In this document: positions 1,359 to 48,094 of the stretch, in pieces | Numbering within the stretch: the stretch's first letter is position 1 | Layout of the letters: every line of letters begins with the position of its first letter | NCBI GenBank assembly: GCA_002816455.1 | Contig: MUCR01000018.1 | Span: forward strand, 1,855-65,854 | Direction of reading: 5' to 3' | DNA: 64,000 nucleotides | Source: SAR202 cluster bacterium Io17-Chloro-G4 | GTDB taxonomy: Bacteria > Chloroflexota > Dehalococcoidia > Lucifugimonadales > UBA3495 | Notes under the pieces: model-generated | The model's input: the letters and a program-made list of their open reading frames with translations, nothing else | Database searches by the model: none | Told to the model about the DNA's origin: nothing | Program-made: the position numbers and the translations under genes

Positions 1359-2339
1359 TCACTGGATGTTGGTCAGGTCCACTTTGTTCAAGCCAGTCAA
1401 ATCGCCTAAACCGGCAGGCAATGCCGTCATCTGGTTATTTAGCAGTTTCAGCCAAGTCAACTCAGCCAAGTTGGCAATTTCGGCTGGCAATGCTGTCAGT
1501 TGGTTGTTAGTCAGGTCCAGGGTGGTAATTGCGCTCAGGTCGCCGATCTCAGGCGGCAACGCCGTGAGCCGATTGGAAGGAAGATCGAGCCTGGTTAAGC
1601 TGGCCAATTTGCCTATCTCTGGTGGCAACTCGGTCAACTGGTTGTGTTGCAAGTCCAGATTTATCAAGCTGGTCAGATTTCCTATCTCTAGGGGCAACAC
1701 CGACAGCCGGTTGTGACCCAAGCTCAGATGGGTGAGGGTGGTGAGGTGTCCGATCTCGGGAGGCAGTGACCTCAGCTGATTGCGTGACAGGCCCAGACTT
1801 GTCAGGCTGCCGAGGTTTCCTATCTCTGGTGGCAACTCGGTCAATTGGTTGTTAGCGAGGTGCAGCCTGGTCAAATTGCCTAGCACGCCTATTTCTGAAG
1901 GCAATACGGTCAACTGGTTGTTGGTCAGGAGCAGAATGGTCAGTCCGGTCAGGTTGCTAAGCTCCGGAGGCAATGCCGTCAACTGGTTGCGTTGCAGTTC
2001 CAACTCGGTCAGACCGGTCAGTTTACCTATCTCGGGGGGCAACTCCGTTAACTGGTTGTTGCTCAGGTCTAGCCTGGTGAAGCCAGTCAGGTTGCCTATC
2101 TCGGGCGGTAATGCCGACAACCGGTTGTATGACAGGTCCAACTTAGTCAAGTTCGTCAAGTTCCCGATGTCTGGGGGCAATGCCGTCAACTGGTTGTAAC
2201 GCAAGTCGAGTTCGGTCAGGCTGGTCAAGTCGCCTATCTCAGCGGGCAAGGTCTCCAAGTCTGCCCCGCCCAGCGATAGAATAGTCGTCCCATTACTCCG
2301 AGCTCTGATTATTATTTCGGCGAGTCTATCTTGGTCCAT
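1359..2339 (-). CDS. leucine-rich repeat (LRR) protein, about 13 tandem 23-aa repeats
   Basis: 326-aa ORF with repeating LxxLxxLxLxxNQLTxLPPEIGxL units (69-bp DNA period). No signal peptide or other domain is visible. Confidence 0.9.
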   Translation of the reverse strand: MDQDRLAEIIIRARSNGTTILSLGGADLETLPAEIGDLTSLTELDLRYNQLTALPPDIGNLTNLTKLDLSYNRLSALPPEIGNLTGFTRLDLSNNQLTELPPEIGKLTGLTELELQRNQLTALPPELSNLTGLTILLLTNNQLTVLPSEIGVLGNLTRLHLANNQLTELPPEIGNLGSLTSLGLSRNQLRSLPPEIGHLTTLTHLSLGHNRLSVLPLEIGNLTSLINLDLQHNQLTELPPEIGKLASLTRLDLPSNRLTALPPEIGDLSAITTLDLTNNQLTALPAEIANLAELTWLKLLNNQMTALPAGLGDLTGLNKVDLTNIQ

Positions 2340-3048: not shown

Positions 3049-3152
3049 GTACATGGCCTGAGTGACGGGTGAAAATTGAATTAGTTAGGTCAACCGACGC
3101 CAAGATGGACTTTCCAACCGTCATTCCGCCATTCGAATAGCTTACTCTTCAC

Positions 3153-3545
3153 CTATGCCTGGGTCGGCAACCCAGCTTCCTTCCAACCCTTCATACCGCC
3201 GTCTATGTAGGTTACGTTTGTGAATCCCATCTCTTTGAGCGCTTGTGCCCCAAGCGAAGCCATGTGGCCAAGCCCTCAAGTCGTGATGATTTTTCGTGAA
3301 CGGTCTTGTAATCTTGGGTTGCGCAAGGGCTCGGGTACCTCCAAGTCTGCGCGTATGGGGAGAGTGCCCAGAGAAATCATCAAAACGTCAGGGGCCCTAT
3401 CGGTCTCTGGTACAGATTCCGCATCTCGGACTTCAATGAGAATAGCTTCCTCGTCATCTTGAAGGCTTTGGTAGGCCTCCATAGGGGTAACTCCGGTCAC
3501 TTCGGCTTTCGCCTCATTCACCATGTCCATCCAGCTTTTTGCCAT
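3153..3545 (-). CDS. single-domain rhodanese (sulfurtransferase) with in-frame TGA at the catalytic Cys position; candidate selenoprotein
   Basis: GAGGAGG lies 8 nt upstream of the ATG at 3545. The frame reads through TGA 3276..3278 into GLGHMASLGAQALKEMGFTNVTYIDGGMKGWKEAGLPTQA and ends at TAG 3153..3155. Total length is about 130 aa, typical for a rhodanese. Confidence 0.65.
3240..3256 (-). promoter_or_regulatory. SECIS-like hairpin downstream of the rhodanese UGA
   Basis: CGCUUG-GGGCA-CAAGCG starts 19 nt 3' of the UGA and has a G-rich apical loop. Confidence 0.45.
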
Positions 3546-3697
3546 GGCCAATTTCCTCCTCACCGGGGATCTCCCGGACCATATCGACTCACCTGAGCGC
3601 GTTTAGCCCAGGAATGCCAAGAACTATAGAGCGGTAATATGCCCTCGTCAACCAGAGGATCGGGTTGATGACAACGGGTCGAGATCTTGGGCTCATG

Positions 3698-4878: not shown

Positions 4879-7800
4879 CTAATCGGACAGAAAGCGGGGC
4901 AGCTTGAAAGGCTTTTCCTCAGGAGGAGGCGGAGGAGTGACCGAAACGGAGCGCACCCCTGTGGCAGGAGTATCCGCTGGTTTTCGATCAGTTGCAGGCT
5001 GGGACCTGGGGGCTGGTTTTTGGGATCCAGCATTTTTGGATCTGCCCAAAAGACGCTTCAATAGTTGGCCGATACCCTGGCCTACACCCTGGCCGTTACT
5101 TTTAGCCTTTTCTTTTGCTCCGTTATCCGCCTGGCTCCGCTCGTCTGAGGTGGCGATCTCCGGCGCACTCCTCCTTCGGGAAGCCCTCGGCTGGATTTCT
5201 ATTTCAGCTTTTGCTTTCTCTGCCGCTTCGGCCCGTGCTCCAATCTGCTCCACTTCTCGAGCTCGGTCCGAGAGTTGCTGTTCGAGTTCGGTTGTCTGTT
5301 GGGAGGCGTCTTCTAGTTGTTTAGTAAGCTGGAAATACAGGGTGGTCAGTCTCTTCCTATCTTTCTCCACCGTTTCAGACCTGGTCTGTAAGCCTTGGAC
5401 CGCTTGAGACTGGTCCGCAACCTGCCGCTCCAGGTGCGCTATCCGTTGGCTGCTTTCTTCAATCTGAGCGTGAAGCGCTGCCGCTCTTTCTTCTGCTTCT
5501 TCCTTCTGCCTCTGGAGATTGGTAATCTCTTGAGTGCGGGCCGAAAGCTGCCGATTCAAATCTGCTGTCTGTTGGCGGCCTTCTTCCAACTGGCCGCTTA
5601 AGACTTCTTTTTCCTTATCAGATGCTTCGGCCTGAGATTGGTGGTCTTGAATTTCTTGGCTGCGTGTCGAGAGTTCTTGTTCCAGTTGGGATACCCTTTG
5701 ACGCCCCTCTTCCAGTTGGGTATCCAGATTTTCCGACCTTTCTTCGGCCGCCAAAGCTCTCATTTCGAGGCTTTGAAACTCCTGACTTTGCTCCGATAGC
5801 CGCTGCTCCAGTTCCGTCACCGTCTGCTGTGCTTGTTCTAACTGGCTGGTGAGACTGAAATACTGGCTGGTCAGGTTGTCCCGCTCTCTCTCCGAAGCGA
5901 CAGTACGGGCCTCTAAGCTTTGAACGTCCTGAGCGCGGGCTGCTAGCTGCTGTTCCAACTCGGTGATACGCCTGCTGGCTTCTTCCGATTGGGCGCCCAA
6001 GGATTCGGCTTTTTCTTCAGCGGCGTTGGAACGGAGTTGGAGTTGCTTGACTTCTTGGTCACGGGCAGCCAGTTGCTGGTCTAATTCCGCGCTACGCTGC
6101 CGGGAAACTTCCAGTAATGCGCCCAAGTCGTCTCTGCTTTGCTCGGCGTCCAGTGCGCGTGCTTCAAGGTCTTGTACCTGTTGGCTGCGGTCCGCGAGTT
6201 GTTGGTCCAACTCGGTGACTCGTCGCCGGGTCGCGTCCAACTGGGTGTTTAGGTTGTCCCGTTCTTGCTGAACGCCTTCGGCACGGAGCTCGAGGTTTTG
6301 GATTTCTTCACTCCGCGCTGCGAGTTGTTGGTCCAATTCAGCCGCACGCTGGCGACCTTCATCTAATTGGCGGTTTAGGTCGTCCCTGTCTTTGTCGCTG
6401 GCCACTGCCCGTAATTCATGGCCCTGCACTTCCTGGATTCGAGCGATCAACTGTTGGTCTAGCTCGGACGCCCTCTGCCGCCCTTCTTCTATTTGCCGGG
6501 TCAGGTTATCCCGGTCTTTTTCTGCGGCTACGGCCCGAAGTTCCAGGGCTTGAATCTCCGTGACTCGGGTGGAGAGTTGTTGGTTCAGGTCGGTAGCCCG
6601 CTGAACTGTCTCCTCCAATTGGATGCTCAGTGTTTCCGAGCCTTCTTCCGCAGCAGATGCCCGTCGCTATAAAACTTGAATTTCCTGAATTCGAGCCGAA
6701 AGTTGCTCGTCCAGTTCCGTGGCACGCTGACGTCTTTCAGCAAGCTGGCTGTTGAGATTGTCCCGGTCCTTCTCAGAGGCTACGGCATGCAGTTCATGCT
6801 CCCGGATTTCTTGGCTTCGGGTCAGGAGTTGCTGGTCCAACTCAGTGGCGCTTTGGCGTCCTTCTTCCAACTGGACGGCGAGATTATCCCGGTCCCTCTC
6901 CGCCGCAACAACGCGCCGTTCCAGTCCTTGAATTTCCTGGGACTGGTTGGAACTCTGTTGGCCTATCTCTGTGGACCGTTGCAGCGCGTCCTCTAGTTGG
7001 GCGCTGAGAGCCTCAGAGGCTTCTTCCGCAGCAGATGCCCGCTGTTCGAGACCTTGGATTTCTTGAATGCAGACGAGAGCTGGTCGTCTAGCTCGGTTGC
7101 CCGTTGGCGTCTCTCGGAAAGTTGACTATTTAGGTTATCCCTGTCCTTCTCGGCGGCCACCGCCTGTAGCTCAAGGTCCCTGATTTCTTGATTGCGGACG
7201 GCAAGTTGCTGATCCAAGTCTTTGAGACGCTGGCCTCCGTCCTCAACCTGGCCGGAGAGACTGTCTTTGTCCTTTTCGGCGCCGGCGGCGCGTCGCTCCA
7301 GGCTCTGGAGTTCTTGGTTTCGGTCCGAGAGTTGTTGCTCCAGCCCGGCCAGCCGCTGTCGGCCTTCTTCCAATTGGGCGCCCAAATTTTCCGACGAGTC
7401 TTCCGCCGCACTGGCCCGCAGTTCAAGCCCCTGCACTTCTTGAGTTCGTTCCGAGAGTTGCTGGTCTAACTCGGTTGCTCTCTGGCGCCTTTCATCAAGC
7501 TGGCTGCTCAGATTATCCCGGTCTTTCTCGACGGCTACCGCATCCAGTTCTAGCGTTTGTATTCGCTGACCGCGTTCGGCTAACTGTTGCTCCAACGTCC
7601 CGATGCGTTGCCGGCCTTCCTCGGCAACGTTGTCCTTATCCCTCTCGGCCGCGACCGCTCGCTTATCCAAATCCTGCACTTCTTGCGTGCGTTCTGAGAG
7701 TTGCTGGTCAAGTTCGGCCACCCGTTGGCGTCTTTCGGAGAGTTGGCTGTTCAAGTTCTCTTGGTCTCTGCCATGAGCCACCGCTCGTAGCTCGTGCTCC

Positions 7801-7946
7801 CGAATCTGCTGGGTGAGTTCCAATATCTGTTGACCCAACTGTTCTTCGCGCTGGCGAAGAGCGTCCAGTTGACTTCTAAGGACTTCCGGGTCTTCGTGTT
7901 GCTCTGTCAAAGTGGTTCCCTGACGACCTGACGCATTAGCGGTCAT
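4879..7946 (-). pseudogene. giant 42-aa-repeat coiled-coil protein, interrupted by one in-frame TAG (6667..6669) and one 1-nt frameshift (about 7068..7073)
   Basis: Three track ORFs (6993..7946, 6667..6870, 4879..6618) carry the same ELDQQLSxRxQEIQxLELRAVAAEKDRDNLxxQLEEGRQRAx repeat. ORFs 2 and 3 share a frame across the TAG. ORF 1 rejoins if one base is restored in ..CTCTCGTCT^GCATTCAAGAAATCCAA.. Confidence 0.75.
5210..7840 (-). repeat. about 21 tandem coding repeats of 126 bp (42 aa, six heptads), with occasional 49-aa variants
   Basis: I counted 42 residues between successive (E/D)L(D/N/E)QQL motifs in several units. Confidence 0.8.
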
Positions 7947-13495: not shown

Positions 13496-14554
13496 TTGCA
13501 AGACCTTGGCGAGACAACGACTGTCCAATGGGACTCAGCCTTAGAGGCCATCGAGCGGTGCTATGAACTGGGCTGGACCGACGGCCTGCCCGTGGTGCCG
13601 CCCACGGTGGACCTAGTTAACCAATTCATAAACGCCGCAAAAAGGGCCTCTTCAGAAGTTGTTGGGCAAATTCCCGAGCGCCGACGGGACATCACCGTGG
13701 GAAAAGTAGCAGCCAACGCAGCGATGGCCGGTTGTTTGCCGGAATACATGCCGGTGTTGCTGGCGGCGGTGGAAGCGATGCTGGACCCCGTGTTCAACCT
13801 GGTAGGGCCATCCTCTAGCATGGGCGGTTCGGCCATACTCTCCATCGTCAATGGCCCCGTCGCCAAGGAGATCGGCCTGAATTCCCGGAACAATCTCTTC
13901 GGTCCGGGCAACCGGGCCAACGCCACCATTGGCCGGGCGGTGCGCTTAGTTCTGATGAACGCCTGCGCCGCTGTTCCCGGTCTGTATGACCGCAGCGTTA
14001 TCGGCCATCCCGGCAAGTACACCTACTGCATTGCCGAAGCGGATACAGAAACCCACTGGACACCCCTTCACGTGGAACGGGGCTACTCCCTGGACCAGAG
14101 CACAGTGACCGTGTTTGCTGGCGAGAGCCCGAGGCAAATCCGGGCGGTGGGCAAGCCCGAAGCGATTCTCTACGCCATCGCCGACGTGAGCTCGACCTTG
14201 GGCACCAACATGTCCACTTCGGGCTCCGTGGGAGACACGGACGTTGGAATTCGGCAAGGGCAAATCGTAGTGACCATAGCCGGGAACTCGGACCTTTGGA
14301 AGGACTGGACCAAGGAGCAAGTCCGAGGCTACTTGCACGCCAACATCCGGCGCTCCGTGGCCGACCTGAAAAACGCTCAAGTGCTGGCCGGGGATGTGGA
14401 ACCGGAAGACGCTGAAAAATTTCTGCCTCTGGTGCCTGAACCGGAAGACATACTTCTGGTCTTTGCTGGTGGCGAGGAGTCCAACATGTCCTCGGTTATA
14501 CCCAGTTGGGGTCCTAAAGTCGCTTGCACTGCCGTTACCAAACAGGTACGCTAA
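13496..14554 (+). CDS. conserved hypothetical protein (GWTDGLPVVPPT motif), partner of the UGSC gene
   Basis: TTG start with GGAGGA 8 nt upstream. 352 aa with coding-like composition. I recognise no domain. Confidence 0.75.
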   Translation: MQDLGETTTVQWDSALEAIERCYELGWTDGLPVVPPTVDLVNQFINAAKRASSEVVGQIPERRRDITVGKVAANAAMAGCLPEYMPVLLAAVEAMLDPVFNLVGPSSSMGGSAILSIVNGPVAKEIGLNSRNNLFGPGNRANATIGRAVRLVLMNACAAVPGLYDRSVIGHPGKYTYCIAEADTETHWTPLHVERGYSLDQSTVTVFAGESPRQIRAVGKPEAILYAIADVSSTLGTNMSTSGSVGDTDVGIRQGQIVVTIAGNSDLWKDWTKEQVRGYLHANIRRSVADLKNAQVLAGDVEPEDAEKFLPLVPEPEDILLVFAGGEESNMSSVIPSWGPKVACTAVTKQVR

Positions 14555-14620
14555 ATAGGCTATCACCCACTGGCCGCAACGAATGACATGGTCAGCCCAA
14601 CCGGATTTTTAGGAGAGAAC

Positions 14621-15163
14621 ATGGCACAGGGAACAGACCACGAGTTAGTCAACCCTACTACCCAAGCCATCGTGGCGCCTTTCGACGGCGCTCCCCGTTT
14701 GCCTTCTTTGGCCGGCACCAGGCTGGGCATCATAGACGACAGTAAGCGGAACGCCGACGTGCTGTTGGAGGAGCTGGCCGAGTTGCTCCGCACGTGGTAC
14801 GAGATCTCCGAAGTGAGGTGGCACCGCAAGCCCAGCGCCTCCAAGCCAGCCGACCCAGAGGCAATTAGGGAACTGGTGGAGAATTGCGACTCGGTGATTG
14901 TTGCGGTGGGTGATTGAGGGTCCTGCAGTGCGTGCAGTGTGCACGACGGAATCCACGTTGAGAACGCAGGCATCCCTTCCGCCACCATCTGCACGGACCG
15001 GTTCGTTCCCACAGCCGCCGGTATGGCCAAGATGTGGGGAGCGCCCGACTACCCGACGATCTTCACGGCCCATCCCATCGAAAACCTGAGCCGGGAGCAG
15101 CTCCGGGCTCGGGCCGAGGAGTTGGCCCCCCAAGTTGTTCAGGTATTGATCGGCGACGTCTAA
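14621..15163 (+). CDS. UGSC-family (seleno)protein with in-frame TGA at 14915..14917
   Basis: AGGAGAG RBS before the ATG at 14621. Track ORFs 14588..14917 and 14939..15163 share a frame. The junction reads VIVAVGD-U-GSCSACSVHDGIHVENAG. Confidence 0.75.
14931..14945 (+). promoter_or_regulatory. SECIS-like hairpin downstream of the UGSC UGA
   Basis: CGUGCA-GUG-UGCACG starts 13 nt after the UGA. An alternative is CUGCA-GUGCG-UGCAG at 14923..14937. Confidence 0.4.
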
Positions 15164-42961: not shown

Positions 42962-44185
42962 ATGCTCAGTCCTTACACAGTTTTAGACCTTACCGATGAC
43001 AAAGGTGAGTTCGCCGGCATGCTCCTTGGAGACTTGGGCGCAGACGTCATCAAGATAGAGCCGCCGGAAGGCTCAAATAGCCGCAAGATGGAGCCATTCT
43101 TGGACGGGGCGCCAGACTCCGAACGCAGCCTTCGTTATTTTGCGTTCAACCGTAACAAGCGGGGCGTTACCCTAGACTTGAACAGCGATGACGGCAAGCT
43201 AGCTCTCAGGTCCCTGGCAGAGAAGGCGGACTTCATCATCGAATCGGCTCCACCGGGCGAGATGGACCGTCTAGGTGTTGGATTTGACGTTCTCAGGCAG
43301 GTCAACCCCCGCATAGTGCATGTGGCGATAACACCCTTTGGCCAGGATGGCCCGTACGCCAATTTCGCCGCCAATGATTTGACCCTGGCCGCCATGAGCG
43401 GGCAAATGAGCGTTCAAGGTGACCCAAATAGACCCCCGGTGCGCATCACAGTACCCCAGGTGTGGTTGCACGCCTCGGCCGAAGCAGTGGTGGGAGCGCT
43501 CACCGCCCACGCTAGGATGCTGGCGACGGGAGAGGCGCAGTTTGTGGACGTATCCGCCCAGACCGCCATGTTCTGGTCCATGTTGCACGCCCGGCTTGCT
43601 CATCCGATTCAGGGGTCCAATTTCAACCGGGGTGGATCTGTACTCCAATTGGGAACTTTAAGCGTGCCGGTCGTGTACGAGTGCGCCGACGGTCACATCG
43701 TAGCGCTTCCCTCGGGCGCCACGATGGTCAAGATGGTCCACTGGCTGGTGGCCGACGGAGTTGTGCCCGAAGAATGGATAGAAGGCGAAGACTGGCCCAT
43801 CTACGAAAGGAACCTATTCCAGGAAAACGCCGTGCGATACCCCATGGAAGAAGTTGTGGATGCCGTTAGCCGTTATATAAAGAGACGCACCAAAGCTGAA
43901 CTCTTGGAGTTGGGTCTTCGGGAAGGCGTGACGCTGGCGCCGGTGAGCACCGCAGAGGACTTGGTCCGCTTTCGGCATTTGGAGGAGCGGGGATACTGGC
44001 TCACAGCTCCGTTACCAAACGGCAGCGAGGTGCGAGCGCTAGGAGTCTTAGCGAGGCCTACGGCGACTCCCATGAGCGTCCGCCTTTGGGCGCCGGCATT
44101 GGGCCAACACAATCAGGAAGTCCTAGGAGACATGCTGGGGCTGTCGCCAGCGTCAGCCGCCGCCGCCAGCGGCCGGAAGGGGTAG
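42962..44185 (+). CDS. family III CoA-transferase, subunit type A (copy 1, catalytic Asp present)
   Basis: Motifs VLDLTDDKGEFAGMLLGDLGADV and GQDGPYANFAANDLTLAAMSG. Confidence 0.85.
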   Translation: MLSPYTVLDLTDDKGEFAGMLLGDLGADVIKIEPPEGSNSRKMEPFLDGAPDSERSLRYFAFNRNKRGVTLDLNSDDGKLALRSLAEKADFIIESAPPGEMDRLGVGFDVLRQVNPRIVHVAITPFGQDGPYANFAANDLTLAAMSGQMSVQGDPNRPPVRITVPQVWLHASAEAVVGALTAHARMLATGEAQFVDVSAQTAMFWSMLHARLAHPIQGSNFNRGGSVLQLGTLSVPVVYECADGHIVALPSGATMVKMVHWLVADGVVPEEWIEGEDWPIYERNLFQENAVRYPMEEVVDAVSRYIKRRTKAELLELGLREGVTLAPVSTAEDLVRFRHLEERGYWLTAPLPNGSEVRALGVLARPTATPMSVRLWAPALGQHNQEVLGDMLGLSPASAAAASGRKG

Positions 44186-44188
44186 TAC

Positions 44189-45412
44189 ATGGCCTCATCA
44201 GACAAGTTGCCATTTGATGGCGTGAAAATTGCGGACTTTTCTTGGGTGTGGGTCGGCCCTACCAGCACCAAATACCTGGCGGACCACGGCGCCACCGTTG
44301 TGAGGGTGGAATCCCTGAGCCGGCCTGATATCCTGTATAGCCTCGGTCCGTTCAAAGACCGGGAGGCCGGACCCACCAGGACCCATGCTTTCAGCGACTT
44401 CAATACGTCCAAGCTTGGCCTTACTTTGAATTTAAAGACTCCCGAAGCCACTGAAATCGCCAAACGCTTGATTTCCTGGACCGACGTTTACGTTGAAAGT
44501 TTCACTCCTGGGACGATGGCCGGATTGGGCATAGATTATGAAGTAGCCAGGAAAGTTAACCCGTCAATAATCATGGTCAGCACTTGTCTTATGGGGCAGA
44601 GCGGCCCGGCATCGGCCTTCGCTGGCTATGGGTTTCATGCCGGGGCAGTGGCTGGATTTTACGACATTACGGGCTGGCCTGATCTTGCCCCAGATGGACC
44701 CTGGGTGGCCTACACCGATGTGGTCACTCCTAGAATTCTGTCGGCCATTATAATGGCGGCCGTGGACCATAAACGCCGTACCGGCCAAGGCCAATATATC
44801 GACGCCAGCCAATTGGAGATGGGACTGCAGTTCTTGGCGCCCCAGATCCTCGATTACACTGCTAACGATCACTTGACCACACGCAACGGAAACCGATCCA
44901 ACTTTGCTGCCCCGCAGGGAGCGTATTCCTGCGCCGGTGATGACCAATGGTGCGCCATTGCCGTCGAAAGTGACGAAGAGTGGGCTGGCTTGGTCAAGGT
45001 ACTAGGAAACCCCGGTTTGGCTACGGACGGCCGTTTCGCCACAAACTCAGGTCGTCTACAAAACCACGACGAGATTGACGCTCAAATCTCTCAGTGGACT
45101 GCCGCCAAGACGCCGCAAGAAGTGATGAGGCTCTGCCAAGCAGAGGGTGTGCCGGCGGGAGTAGTCCAGCGAAGCAGTGACTTGTTTGAGGACCCGCAAC
45201 TGGCTCACCGGAGAATGTTTCCTCAGCTCGACGATCCACAAGTGGGACCGGTTCCTCACACCGGTCATCTGTTTGACATTCGCGGCTACGACCATGGGCC
45301 GCGGTCCCCCTCTCCGTTAATAGGCCAGCACAACGAGCAGATATTGAAAGAATTCCTGGGCATGACTGATGACGAAATCACCGAAGCCGTAATAGCGGGC
45401 GCCCTGGAATAA
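44189..45412 (+). CDS. family III CoA-transferase-like, subunit type B (copy 1, Asp replaced by Gly)
   Basis: Motifs KIADFSWVWVGPTSTKYLADHGATV and GQSGPASAFAGYGFHAGAVAG. Starts 3 nt after A1 ends. Confidence 0.85.
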   Translation: MASSDKLPFDGVKIADFSWVWVGPTSTKYLADHGATVVRVESLSRPDILYSLGPFKDREAGPTRTHAFSDFNTSKLGLTLNLKTPEATEIAKRLISWTDVYVESFTPGTMAGLGIDYEVARKVNPSIIMVSTCLMGQSGPASAFAGYGFHAGAVAGFYDITGWPDLAPDGPWVAYTDVVTPRILSAIIMAAVDHKRRTGQGQYIDASQLEMGLQFLAPQILDYTANDHLTTRNGNRSNFAAPQGAYSCAGDDQWCAIAVESDEEWAGLVKVLGNPGLATDGRFATNSGRLQNHDEIDAQISQWTAAKTPQEVMRLCQAEGVPAGVVQRSSDLFEDPQLAHRRMFPQLDDPQVGPVPHTGHLFDIRGYDHGPRSPSPLIGQHNEQILKEFLGMTDDEITEAVIAGALE

Positions 45413-45454
45413 ATTAAATCATGGTAATCAAGAACCGGGCGTGAAAGGACCTAA

Positions 45455-46681
45455 ATGCTCAGTCCCTACACAGTATTGGACCTGACGGATGAAAAAGGCG
45501 AGTTGGCCAGCATGGTGCTGGGCGACTTGGGCGCGGACGTAATCAAGGTGGAGCCGCCCGGTGGCTCGCCGAGCCGGGCCATGGGGCCATATTTGGAACA
45601 CGCTCCAGAGGCGGAACGTAGCCTCCAATACTTTGCTTTCAACCGAAACAAACGTAGCGTAACTCTGGACCTGGAAACGGAAACGGGGCGCACCGCATTG
45701 TTCTCTTTGGTGGAAAAAGCCGATTTCATCATCGAGTCGGCCCAGGCGGGGGCGATGGCCGGGAAGGGGCTGGGATTTGAAGCCATGCGGCAAGCGAATC
45801 CCCGTATCGTTTACGTGGCTATAACACCATTTGGGCAAGATGGGCCTCATGCGAATTTCCCCGCCAGCGACCTGACTGTTGCCGCAATGGGCGGCCCCAT
45901 GAGCCTGCAGGGGGTTCCAGACCGCGCTCCCGTGCGATTGTCCCTGCCCCAAGCTTGGCTACATGCTTCGGTGGAAGCATCAGTCGGAGCTTTGACCGCC
46001 CACGCCCTGATGCTACGCACTAACCAAGCCCAATTTGTGGATGTGTCCGCTCAGACTGCCATGATTTGGACCATGATGCAGGGGATGTCAGCTCACTCGG
46101 TCCAAGGCCGGGACTTCAACCGGAGCGGCAACACAATCCAGTTGGGAACGGTCAACCTCCGTTTGGTCCACGAATGCGCTGACGGCTACGTGGTGATATT
46201 TCCCATTGGGGGCGCCCTGTTTAAGCTAGTCGAATGGTGCGTTCAGGATGGCATTATTCCCGAAGATTGGCTCACTGCCGAAGATTGGCCCATGTACCAT
46301 TTCAAAGTGCTCCAACAGCAACCGGTGGCCCATACGATTGACGAAGTTTTGGAAACTGTCAGCGCCTATGTTCGGGACAAAACTAAAAACCAATTGCTAG
46401 AGCATGGTCTCGCCGAGGGAGTGTCCATGGCTCCGGTGAGCAACATGGAAGATTTGACCCGATTCCGTCACTTGGAGGAGCGCGGTTATTGGCTTACGGC
46501 CCCGTTGCCCAATGGAAGCGAAGCCCAAGTGCCGGGCATTTTCGCCAACCTCACCGGAACGCCTTTGAGTGTACGCCGTTGGCCCCCCAAACTGGGTGAG
46601 CACACCGACGAAGTATTGGGGGACCTATTAGGGCTGTCGTCAAGCCAGATCGCGGACGCGTCTGGCCATGGGCCAGGTTAA
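45455..46681 (+). CDS. family III CoA-transferase, subunit type A (copy 2)
   Basis: Collinear with 42962..44185. GQDGPHANFPASDLTVAAMGG. Confidence 0.85.
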   Translation: MLSPYTVLDLTDEKGELASMVLGDLGADVIKVEPPGGSPSRAMGPYLEHAPEAERSLQYFAFNRNKRSVTLDLETETGRTALFSLVEKADFIIESAQAGAMAGKGLGFEAMRQANPRIVYVAITPFGQDGPHANFPASDLTVAAMGGPMSLQGVPDRAPVRLSLPQAWLHASVEASVGALTAHALMLRTNQAQFVDVSAQTAMIWTMMQGMSAHSVQGRDFNRSGNTIQLGTVNLRLVHECADGYVVIFPIGGALFKLVEWCVQDGIIPEDWLTAEDWPMYHFKVLQQQPVAHTIDEVLETVSAYVRDKTKNQLLEHGLAEGVSMAPVSNMEDLTRFRHLEERGYWLTAPLPNGSEAQVPGIFANLTGTPLSVRRWPPKLGEHTDEVLGDLLGLSSSQIADASGHGPG

Positions 46682-46698
46682 TACGATTCTCTCATTAT

Positions 46699-46815
46699 GT
46701 CATTCTGAAAGAGCGCAGCGACAGAAGCTCCCCCGATGGCATCGGGGCGAGTCCTCGACAACGTCGGGAAATCTCGTGTGTTTAGCATCAGATCCTTCAC
46801 TTCACACAGAATGAC
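46699..46815. mobile_element. MITE-like about 117-bp insertion between A2 and B2
   Basis: Terminal inverted repeats GTCATTCTG (46699..46707) and CAGAATGAC (46807..46815), with an internal hairpin CCCCGAT-GGC-ATCGGGG. The A1-B1 junction has only a 3-nt spacer. Confidence 0.55.
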
Positions 46816-46873
46816 ACTCCGTAAATGGAGAGTACCAAATTTGAGGCCGTCTAAGACAAGAGTAGAGGTTTAG

Positions 46874-48094
46874 ATGCCGGATACGCTGCCGTTTGAAGGG
46901 TTAAAAATCGCCGACTTTTCGTGGGTCGGAGTGGGTCCCATTACCACCAAATACCTGGCCGACCACGGGGCAACCGTAGTGCGGGTGGAGACTACCAGCC
47001 CTCTGGATATTCTACGGGTCGCCGGCCCCTTCAAAGACAGTGTGCCGGGCCCAAACCGCAGCCAGTTCTTCGCCGACTACAATACTTCCAAATACGGAAT
47101 CACCTTAGACCTAAAAAACGCAGCCGCAGTCGAGGTGGCTCACCGCCTGATTGCCTGGGCCGATGTTCTTGCTGAGAGTTTTACCCCCGGCACCGTGGAC
47201 AGCCTGGGCATCGGGTACGAAACCGCTCGTGCCATTAACCCTTCAATAATAATGGCCAGCACTTGCTTGATGGGGCAGACCGGCCCCGCCGCTAGCTTTG
47301 CCGGCTTCGGATTTCATGCCGGTTCCATCGCTGGCTATTATGAGATCACCGGATGGCCCGACCTTCCACCGGACGGTCCTTGGACCGCCTACACCGACAC
47401 GGTATCACCTCGATTTTTAGCCGCGATATTAATGGCCGCTCTGGACCACCGGCGTAGAACCGGTGAAGGCCAACACATCGATGCTGCTCAGTTGGAGATG
47501 AGCCTTCACTTCCTTGCGCCTCAATTGATTGATTACAACGTCAGCGGACGGTCGATCACCCGAAACGGCAACCGTTCCGAGTTTATGGCGCCTCACGGGG
47601 CTTTTCCTTGCCAAGGTGAGGACCAATGGTGCGCCGTGGCCGTGGAAAACGACCAGCAATGGGCTGGGCTGCAAAGGGCCATGGGTGAGCCTGACTGGGC
47701 CAAAGACCAGAGATTCGCCCATGTGGAGGGCCGTCTAGCAAACCAGGACGAAATAGAAAGCAAGCTAGGCGAGTGGACAAAGTCCATGCCGCCGAAAGCG
47801 GTTATGGAAGCTTTGCATGGGCAAGGCGTTCCAGCCGGCATCGTTCAGCGGAGCAGTGACCTGCAGCAAGACCCTCAATTGGCTCACCGAGGGTTTTTCC
47901 GGGACCTGGACCACCAAGAAATGGGCACCGTACCTTACGCTGGCCACCAGTTCCGCATCAGCGGCTACGACAGCGCCCCCAGGTCAGCGGCGCCTGTGCT
48001 GGGCCAGCACAACGACGAGGTGCTGCGGGATATCTTGGAAATGACCGAGGAAGAGATTACCGAAGCCATAATTGCCGGAGCCTTGGGCGGCTAA
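46874..48094 (+). CDS. family III CoA-transferase-like, subunit type B (copy 2, Asp replaced by Gly)
   Basis: Collinear with 44189..45412. GQTGPAASFAGFGFHAGSIAG. Confidence 0.85.
   Translation: MPDTLPFEGLKIADFSWVGVGPITTKYLADHGATVVRVETTSPLDILRVAGPFKDSVPGPNRSQFFADYNTSKYGITLDLKNAAAVEVAHRLIAWADVLAESFTPGTVDSLGIGYETARAINPSIIMASTCLMGQTGPAASFAGFGFHAGSIAGYYEITGWPDLPPDGPWTAYTDTVSPRFLAAILMAALDHRRRTGEGQHIDAAQLEMSLHFLAPQLIDYNVSGRSITRNGNRSEFMAPHGAFPCQGEDQWCAVAVENDQQWAGLQRAMGEPDWAKDQRFAHVEGRLANQDEIESKLGEWTKSMPPKAVMEALHGQGVPAGIVQRSSDLQQDPQLAHRGFFRDLDHQEMGTVPYAGHQFRISGYDSAPRSAAPVLGQHNDEVLRDILEMTEEEITEAIIAGALGG

Follow-up and report, generated by a model that had tools for sequence, protein, structure and literature searches.

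Selenocysteine (Sec)-containing sulfurtransferases have been reported since 2005-2008 from several bacterial sources, including a family assigned to COG2897 in the Sargasso Sea survey (PMC1088965), rhodanese-type enzymes in Olavius symbionts (PMC1976440) and six sequences listed as 'Sulfurtransferase COG0607' in the Global Ocean Sampling (GOS) survey (PMC2398784). A 2026 review distinguishes five forms of rhodanese selenoprotein, two of them with a UxxG motif in which U is Sec; of the five, the rhodanese-like forms 1, 2 and 4 carry the motifs UxxS and UxxG (PMC13188914). Here we describe a candidate member of this group from SAR202 cluster bacterium Io17-Chloro-G4 (Chloroflexota; Dehalococcoidia). 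It lies in a stretch of 64,000 nucleotides (nt) of contig MUCR01000018.1, hereafter the window, and coordinates refer to the window unless a related locus is named. An earlier reading made from the letters of the window, hereafter the sequence-only reading, had proposed that an in-frame TGA in a small rhodanese gene specifies Sec. It had also stated that marine surveys had reported Sec rhodaneses, which is correct (PMC1088965, PMC2398784). We consider it highly probable that the gene encodes a genuine selenoprotein, a cytoplasmic single-domain rhodanese in which Sec replaces the persulfide-carrying catalytic cysteine (Cys).

The UGA-containing rhodanese gene and its relatives

The gene and the elements that define it, all on the minus strand, are as follows.

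3545..3153, minus strand: putative Sec-rhodanese gene, with start ATG at 3545..3543, Sec-UGA at 3278..3276 and stop TAG at 3155..3153.
3559..3555, minus strand: Shine-Dalgarno-like GGAGG, 9 nt 5' of the ATG, read directly from the sequence.
3278..3276, minus strand: in-frame TGA, putative Sec codon of residue 90, first residue of the active-site loop and located at the alignment column of the catalytic Cys.
3275..3156, minus strand: the 40 codons after the UGA (GLGHMASLGAQALKEMGFTNVTYIDGGMKGWKEAGLPTQA), translated as the C-terminal third of the rhodanese domain.

Around the TGA, the minus-strand frame reads ATC ACG ACT TGA GGG CTT GGC CAC ATG, and from there it continues to the TAG. We placed the start at the ATG (MAKSW...) and not at the GTG at 3563 given in the list of open reading frames (ORFs); the N-terminal MAKS[WF] is kept in all homologues. 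The bridged product has 130 amino acids (aa), a single rhodanese domain and no Cys residue. Scored with C substituted for the UGA, it matched the Pfam Rhodanese family (PF00581) with 47.6 bits, against a cut-off of 22.2, over residues 24-124; the match spans the TGA and covers profile positions 4-102 of 102.

In sequence alignments, the TGA falls on the catalytic Cys of the Francisella tandem rhodanese 6mxv (YFYCGGGFRS) and of Sud from Wolinella succinogenes (1qxn; VVFCKTAARA), and no gap is needed to align the active-site loop with the six-residue loops of both proteins, the UGA taking the first position. An AlphaFold2 model, generated from the alignment of homologues and with a predicted local distance difference test (pLDDT) score of 92.8, places a strand at residues 86-88, a loop at 89-93 and a helix at 94-105, with residue 90 opening the strand-helix loop. 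The best fold match in the PDB was 2hhg, with a template modelling (TM) score of 0.87, followed by 6mxv, Sud, fusions of persulfide dioxygenase and rhodanese, YgaP and GlpE; nearly all of the top 50 matches were rhodanese or rhodanese-like domains. From the model, the protein is predicted to have the fold of a GlpE/PspE/Sud-like sulfurtransferase. The sequence-only reading had described the TGA at 3276..3278 and the 40 in-frame codons leading to the TAG at 3153..3155, a normal single-domain rhodanese of about 130 aa once the two halves are joined, and a TGA that opens the active-site loop at the catalytic-Cys position. All of this agrees with our results, and the 40 downstream codons, on whose rhodanese similarity the proposal depended, show both the Pfam match, to residue 124, and coding constraint (see below).

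In all public assemblies the locus is annotated as two ORFs, one of 89 aa with no Pfam match and one of 36 aa that matches Rhodanese weakly. Protein searches returned two kinds of match, full-length proteins of 129-130 aa with Cys at the column and 89-aa proteins that end just before the TGA. Nine contigs, assembled from several marine samples independent of one another, encode an 89-aa protein identical to that of the window, and at each place shown a separately called 36-aa 'rhodanese' fragment follows it. One scaffold with the identical gene, MIZU16-1_SAMN04325108_METAG-scaffold_48, is 193 kb long. These split calls (window region 3142..3279, minus strand) are a systematic misannotation of the family.

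Scans of GTDB species genomes and JGI metagenomes for homologues yielded 168 loci. TGA occupies this codon in 51 of them, corresponding to 39 distinct gene sequences with pairwise nucleotide identities of 64-99.7%. Of the GTDB species genomes, 11 carry it, as do about 30 contigs from the JGI metagenomes. All TGA forms come from marine metagenomes or from metagenome-assembled genomes labelled Dehalococcoidia, SAR202 or Chloroflexota, and they comprise three loop subtypes, U-GLGHMA, U-GGGQMA and U-GIGSMA. Among the non-TGA loci, hosted by other Chloroflexota, Gammaproteobacteria, Gemmatimonadota, Bacillus, Paenibacillus and others, the column holds TGC or TGT in 73 of 74 cases and TCA in the remaining one. 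The homologues thus place a Cys codon at this position, and not a gap or some other residue, as expected if the TGA stands for a catalytic Cys.

We masked the Sec/Cys column to build a neighbour-joining tree, in which the Sec forms constitute one clade, sister to the Cys forms L169 and L170 and nested in the Cys family. The simplest history compatible with these sequences would be a single change from Cys to Sec, retained through later diversification.

Two loci inside the Sec clade do not carry the TGA. L172 (974..1366), 98% identical to the TGA locus L017, has TCA in its place, plus a CAA to CAT change that breaks the stem of the hairpin described in the next section. L171 (91..483) has TGT with the hairpin intact, on a contig of 502 nt with several odd substitutions. 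Both could result from errors, or from a loss of Sec in the very recent past. We rejected the Ser variant (P0007/L172) as a counter-example: its only differences from the Sec form are seven substitutions, scattered along the gene and with a single transition among them, and it is known from one contig of 1.9 kb; it is treated as an error-prone or degenerate copy.

Diversity at the first, second and third codon positions, calculated over the 39 distinct sequences, was 0.183, 0.097 and 0.521 upstream of the TGA and 0.096, 0.068 and 0.419 downstream of it (codons 91-129). In the alignment, the values downstream of the TGA are those that purifying selection on a protein leaves behind. Codons 91-94, which extend from the UGA to the next ATG, also vary synonymously, with Gly91 using four codons; the tail therefore does not represent an independent gene of 36 aa.

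The hairpin downstream of the UGA

A hairpin resembling a bacterial Sec insertion sequence (SECIS), which the sequence-only reading had placed just behind the UGA, is indeed present there and co-occurs with the TGA. Its parts, and a second conserved element nearby, are as follows.

3256..3240, minus strand: SECIS-like hairpin CGCUUG-GGGCA-CAAGCG, starting 19 nt after the UGA.
3256..3251, minus strand: 5' arm of the hairpin, CGCUUG.
3250..3246, minus strand: loop of the hairpin, GGGCA.
3245..3240, minus strand: 3' arm of the hairpin, CAAGCG.
3269..3266, minus strand: GGCC, made of codon 93 (GGC) and the base that opens codon 94, kept with little or no variation in the Sec forms and lying upstream of the hairpin, outside its 6-bp stem.

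Folded in isolation, the hairpin has a predicted free energy of -8.2 kcal/mol (z = -3.4 against shuffles). The published model of the bacterial SECIS (bSECIS) specifies an apical loop of 3-9 nt with G in its first two positions, an upper stem of 4-16 bp, a distance of 16-37 nt from UGA to loop and a minimum free energy of -7.5 kcal/mol or lower (PMC13188914). With a 5-nt loop, a 6-bp stem and 25 nt from UGA to loop, the window hairpin falls within every one of these limits.

The RNAalifold consensus for the 39 sequences contains the same helix, with columns 23-28 paired with columns 34-39. All six stem pairs form in 25 of the 27 distinct Sec forms. Conversely, only 0-2 of the six pairs form in 47 of the 59 distinct Cys-form segments, and the only Cys forms with five or six pairs are four, L169-L172, which are immediate relatives of the Sec clade.

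The nucleotide sequence of the hairpin region is also restricted beyond what the protein requires. The gene has 57 conserved codons with at least four-fold degeneracy, and a single codon is used throughout at only four of them, namely Gly93 (GGC), Leu98 (CUU), Gly99 (GGG) and Val102 (GUG). All four lie no more than 36 nt after the UGA, a segment that holds nine such codons (hypergeometric estimate, about 3e-4), whereas the 59 Cys-form segments use all four Gly codons at the same two Gly positions. These sequence comparisons show the hairpin to be under selection at the RNA level that is tied to the presence of the UGA, and to decay where the UGA is absent. The support for a SECIS comes from this freezing of synonymous sites, together with the control provided by the Cys forms, and not from covariation.

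The frozen GGCC includes codon 93, which is GGC in all Sec forms as compared with four different codons in the Cys forms. The GGCC may form a mini-helix of 3 bp with G18-G19-C20 (in the AUGGC that follows), which is predicted in the RNAalifold consensus; another possible partner is the GGC in the loop of the SECIS. The lowest-energy fold of this region in the window (-22.4 kcal/mol) is a longer hairpin that takes in the UGA itself. We discarded it as the conserved element, since neither the GGGQ nor the GIGS subtype can form it.

Selenocysteine decoding and competing explanations

The window contains a second gene with an in-frame TGA, which the sequence-only reading had assigned to the UGSC family.

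14588..15163, plus strand: predicted UGSC selenoprotein gene, with TGA at 14915..14917; the start is uncertain, at 14588 or 14621.

The assignment is well founded, as the gene scores 161.5 bits with NF041046, above the cut-off of 125. It has its own hairpin, CGUGCA-GUG-UGCACG (14931..14945), with a G-U loop and located 19 nt after its UGA. The presence of a UGSC selenoprotein gene in the window is therefore evidence for Sec decoding by this organism. Scanning the window for in-frame TGAs gave only two convincing cases, the rhodanese and UGSC genes. Elsewhere TGA is an ordinary stop, ending 5 of the 38 long frames of the window, and therefore the genetic code is not reassigned.

Close relatives provide further evidence. 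SAR202 bin.363 (L013) contains a tRNA-Sec with anticodon TCA (6187..6283, minus strand), located 4 kb from the orthologous TGA-rhodanese and adjoining a thioredoxin gene; it was identified by ARAGORN and by Rfam RF01852, with 66.4 bits (gathering score, 47). Dehalococcoidia UBA1141 (L009, 81% identity) and 10f4566d (L010, 80%), whose genomes are the two closest at species level, are listed with 49 and 46 selenoprotein genes, respectively, and both appear in the table of the top ten bacteria of BSepDB (PMC13326102). The BSepDB study first identifies selA, selB and selD, and reports selenoprotein genes for Sec-utilising species (PMC13326102). Neither ARAGORN nor Rfam found a tRNA-Sec in the window, and a motif scan for GTPases of the SelB type was negative for the window and for the Sec-type loci alike.

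By analogy with the bacterial SelA/SelB/SelC/SelD pathway, the hairpin, through its G-rich loop, would recruit SelB-GTP-Sec-tRNA(Sec) to the ribosome, and the UGA at 3278..3276 would then be decoded as Sec instead of as a stop. Sec is functionally analogous to Cys. Following rhodanese chemistry, the selenolate would take sulfane sulfur (or selenium) from a donor, as enzyme-Se-S(-), and this intermediate would hand the atom on to a thiophilic acceptor. Both half-reactions would be sped up, as Se has the lower pKa and leaves more readily. Since the product has no Cys, and hence no resolving thiol, a role as carrier or transferase would be expected rather than one as an intramolecular redox switch. 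The sequence-only reading had further suggested that the lack of the usual Arg in the loop hints at unusual chemistry. The sequences do not support this suggestion, because Cys homologues (CGLGNLA, CQTGENA) and E. coli GlpE also lack this Arg; the Arg-less loop is thus a family trait and not linked to Sec. At loop position +4, Asn in the Cys forms is replaced by His, Gln or Ser in the Sec forms.

Several points weigh against a Sec-dependent sulfurtransferase. The genes selA, selB, selC and selD were not found in the 64-kb window, and the machinery is seen for relatives only. Covariation in the hairpin is weak: one pair appears as G-C, G-U or A-U and another as U-A or U-G, none is scored as a two-sided change, and the observed score is reached by 45 of 500 shuffles. 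The Rfam SECIS families matched neither the window at gathering thresholds nor the region 3150..3330 at E <= 10. Moreover, the putative identity of residue 90 as Sec is read from the nucleotide sequence, and analogy with the family supplies both the presumed substrate and the presumed direction of transfer.

The gene could be a genuine Sec-rhodanese with a different role, either in selenium trafficking, by passing perselenide to SelD or to a Se-cofactor pathway, or as a redox or detoxifying enzyme. Rhodanese domains serve Se metabolism elsewhere, for example in the tRNA 2-selenouridine synthase YbbB, on which the GOS report cites earlier work (PMC2398784). The lineage has very large selenoproteomes, and in the related GGGQ subtype the rhodanese gene lies 1.5 kb from another UGA-containing gene with a UGSC domain. 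Nevertheless, no conserved linkage to selD or to other genes of Se metabolism was seen in the neighbourhoods viewed, synteny differs between subtypes, and Cys orthologues are widespread, including in Bacillus and Paenibacillus, where a general sulfurtransferase role is more plausible. We therefore regard this alternative as unlikely. A further idea is that the SAR202/Dehalococcoidia clade forms a separate, uncatalogued subfamily of Sec-rhodaneses, whose remodelled +4 loop position, frozen GGCC and recurrent proximity to UGSC genes could together mark a Se-dependent sulfur/selenium relay specific to deep-ocean Chloroflexota; this is speculative, and we think it quite unlikely.

The UGA might also be read through as Trp, Cys or Gly, by a near-cognate or suppressor tRNA, or be reassigned, the hairpin acting only as a stimulator of read-through. 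The inserted amino acid cannot be read directly from a nucleotide sequence, and sel genes were not found on this contig. However, other long ORFs stop at TGA, only two genes, both of known Sec/Cys families, contain an in-frame TGA, and the position affected is the catalytic-Cys column, which is the usual site of Sec. Likewise, the hairpin fits the SECIS model of the SelB type, a tRNA-Sec lies near the L013 orthologue and the closest genomes are those of catalogued Sec users, which together make read-through with an ordinary amino acid very improbable.

Even less credible is that the TGA is a real stop, and the gene either a pseudogene or the source of a truncated protein of 89 residues followed by a decaying remnant. 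This agrees with the gene callers, which in all public assemblies split the locus into 89-aa and 36-aa ORFs, and with the failure to find sel genes in the window. Yet the TGA and the tail persist across 39 distinct sequences, down to 64% nucleotide identity, and the tail has a strong third-position bias. A product truncated at the TGA would have neither an active-site loop nor the helix-strand-helix that closes the fold, and a decaying tail would not hold a hairpin frozen at synonymous sites.

Finally, an error of sequencing or assembly that turned TGC or TGT into TGA, for which one could only cite the error-looking L171 (502 nt), with TGT and the same hairpin, and L172, with TCA, has a negligible probability, because assembly of the identical TGA gene in nine contigs from independent samples rules out a one-off error, and the TGA recurs in the 11 GTDB genomes and about 30 JGI contigs.

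Gene neighbourhood and comparison with known systems

No functional partner conserved across the subtypes was found in the neighbourhoods compared. The genes around the two predicted selenoprotein genes of the window, and around the Sec-rhodaneses of related loci, yielded the following observations.

Just upstream of the UGSC gene, a gene of 352 aa (13496..14554, plus strand) has no match in Pfam or NCBIfam. Its product shares 37% identity with the C-terminal domain of a fusion protein (L017 11539..13263). Genes for this fusion occur in 18-19 related loci, at a distance of about 1.5 kb downstream from the Sec-rhodanese. The N-terminal domain of this fusion is a UGSC domain (PF24696, 99.6 bits) with its own in-frame TGA (T-A-H-U-G-G-C). 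Such a Rosetta-stone pattern suggests, at the level of sequence, that the UGSC gene and the 352-aa gene of the window act together.

In loci of the GGGQ subtype, an enzyme of the threonine-synthase type, dependent on pyridoxal phosphate (PLP), is encoded directly downstream of the Sec-rhodanese in 11 cases (e.g. L011 10425..11549), and directly upstream of it in a twelfth locus, L013. The enzyme scores 177.5 bits with TIGR00260 (cut-off, 167.1), as an ordinary threonine synthase, and has an N-terminal, zinc-ribbon-like CxxC...CxxC. No such enzyme is encoded in the neighbourhood of the window's rhodanese. A link of the MetM/MetO type was considered and dropped, since MetO is a ThiS-like carrier and not a rhodanese.

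Near the rhodanese, the segments 4879..7946 and 1359..2339 (both minus strand) contain two long, repeated, coiled-coil-like ORFs (…ELDQQL…RAVAAEKDRDNL…) and a leucine-rich-repeat protein of 326 aa. The lengths of the coiled-coil genes vary across the otherwise syntenic contigs L001-L005 (579, 663, 426 and 317 aa). Further away, at 42962..48094 (plus strand), there are four tandem ORFs of 406-408 aa that are apparent paralogues.

The rhodanese of the window resembles the surveyed Sec sulfurtransferases (COG0607 and the forms of the review) in its single PF00581 domain, the position of the putative Sec at the catalytic Cys, its marine origin, its many Cys homologues and the bSECIS-like hairpin directly downstream of the UGA. 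It also shares the UxxG motif of review form 2, as UGLG in the window and as UGGG and UGIG in relatives, a comparison that concerns the listed motif and not the sequences MBM9537886.1 and MCY3690685.1. Unlike it, the Sargasso Sea family belongs to COG2897, of the two-domain SseA type.

None of the NCBIfam models reached its cut-off with this protein, and the best matches were far below. We rejected identity with NF041203, rhodanese_LYCAU, which is form 3 of the review (22.5 bits against a cut-off of 115). Both are small rhodanese-domain proteins able to carry Sec, but in NF041203 Sec stands two residues after a Cys (CxU), whereas here it would replace the Cys itself (TT-U-GLG) in a protein without Cys. 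Identity with NF045694, the rhodanese/DsbD fusion TsoB, was also rejected (11.3 bits against a cut-off of 805), as our protein has a single domain and one UGA, in contrast with the UxxxxU of TsoB. Phosphatases and arsenate reductases with a rhodanese fold, of the Cdc25/Acr2 type, have a seven-residue CX5R loop. The protein of the window cannot be placed with them, because there is no Arg in or after its loop (UGLGHMAS), which aligns without gaps to six-residue loops.

The predicted structure shares its fold, including the N-terminal helix, with Sud (1qxn), 6mxv, RPA3614 (2hhg) and the E. coli proteins GlpE, PspE and YgaP, with TM-scores of 0.72-0.87 and an identity of only 22-28%; these proteins all use Cys. 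It differs from Sud and 6mxv in its loop, G-L-G-H-M, which is without their Arg. It also differs from the periplasmic Sud in that inspection by eye, with no predictor run, showed no hydrophobic, signal-like segment at the N-terminus (which starts MAKSWMDMVNEAKAEV). As for the hairpin, it agrees with SECIS elements of the E. coli fdhF type and with the bSECIS consensus in being a stem-loop within the coding sequence, just 3' of the UGA, with a small apical loop that starts with G-G. It departs from known SECIS elements in having no sequence similarity to the Rfam SECIS families and a short predicted stem, of 6 bp (8-9 bp in the GGGQ subtype).

The gene is invisible in the standard annotation of SAR202, which is among the most abundant bacterial groups of the deep ocean, because public calls split the locus and no NCBIfam model would rescue it. 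This case, which extends over a whole clade, is one more piece of evidence for a heavy reliance of marine Dehalococcoidia on selenium, in this instance at the catalytic site of a sulfur-transfer enzyme. Paired with their Cys sister forms, the Sec forms show a SECIS arising and decaying inside a coding sequence. The value of the locus thus resides in its annotation and in a clean natural experiment that combines the Sec/Cys exchange with the SECIS, and not in a new principle or class of system. Sec rhodaneses and selenium-rich marine Dehalococcoidia have both been described already, and the gene is a new, or at most a newly documented, member among them.

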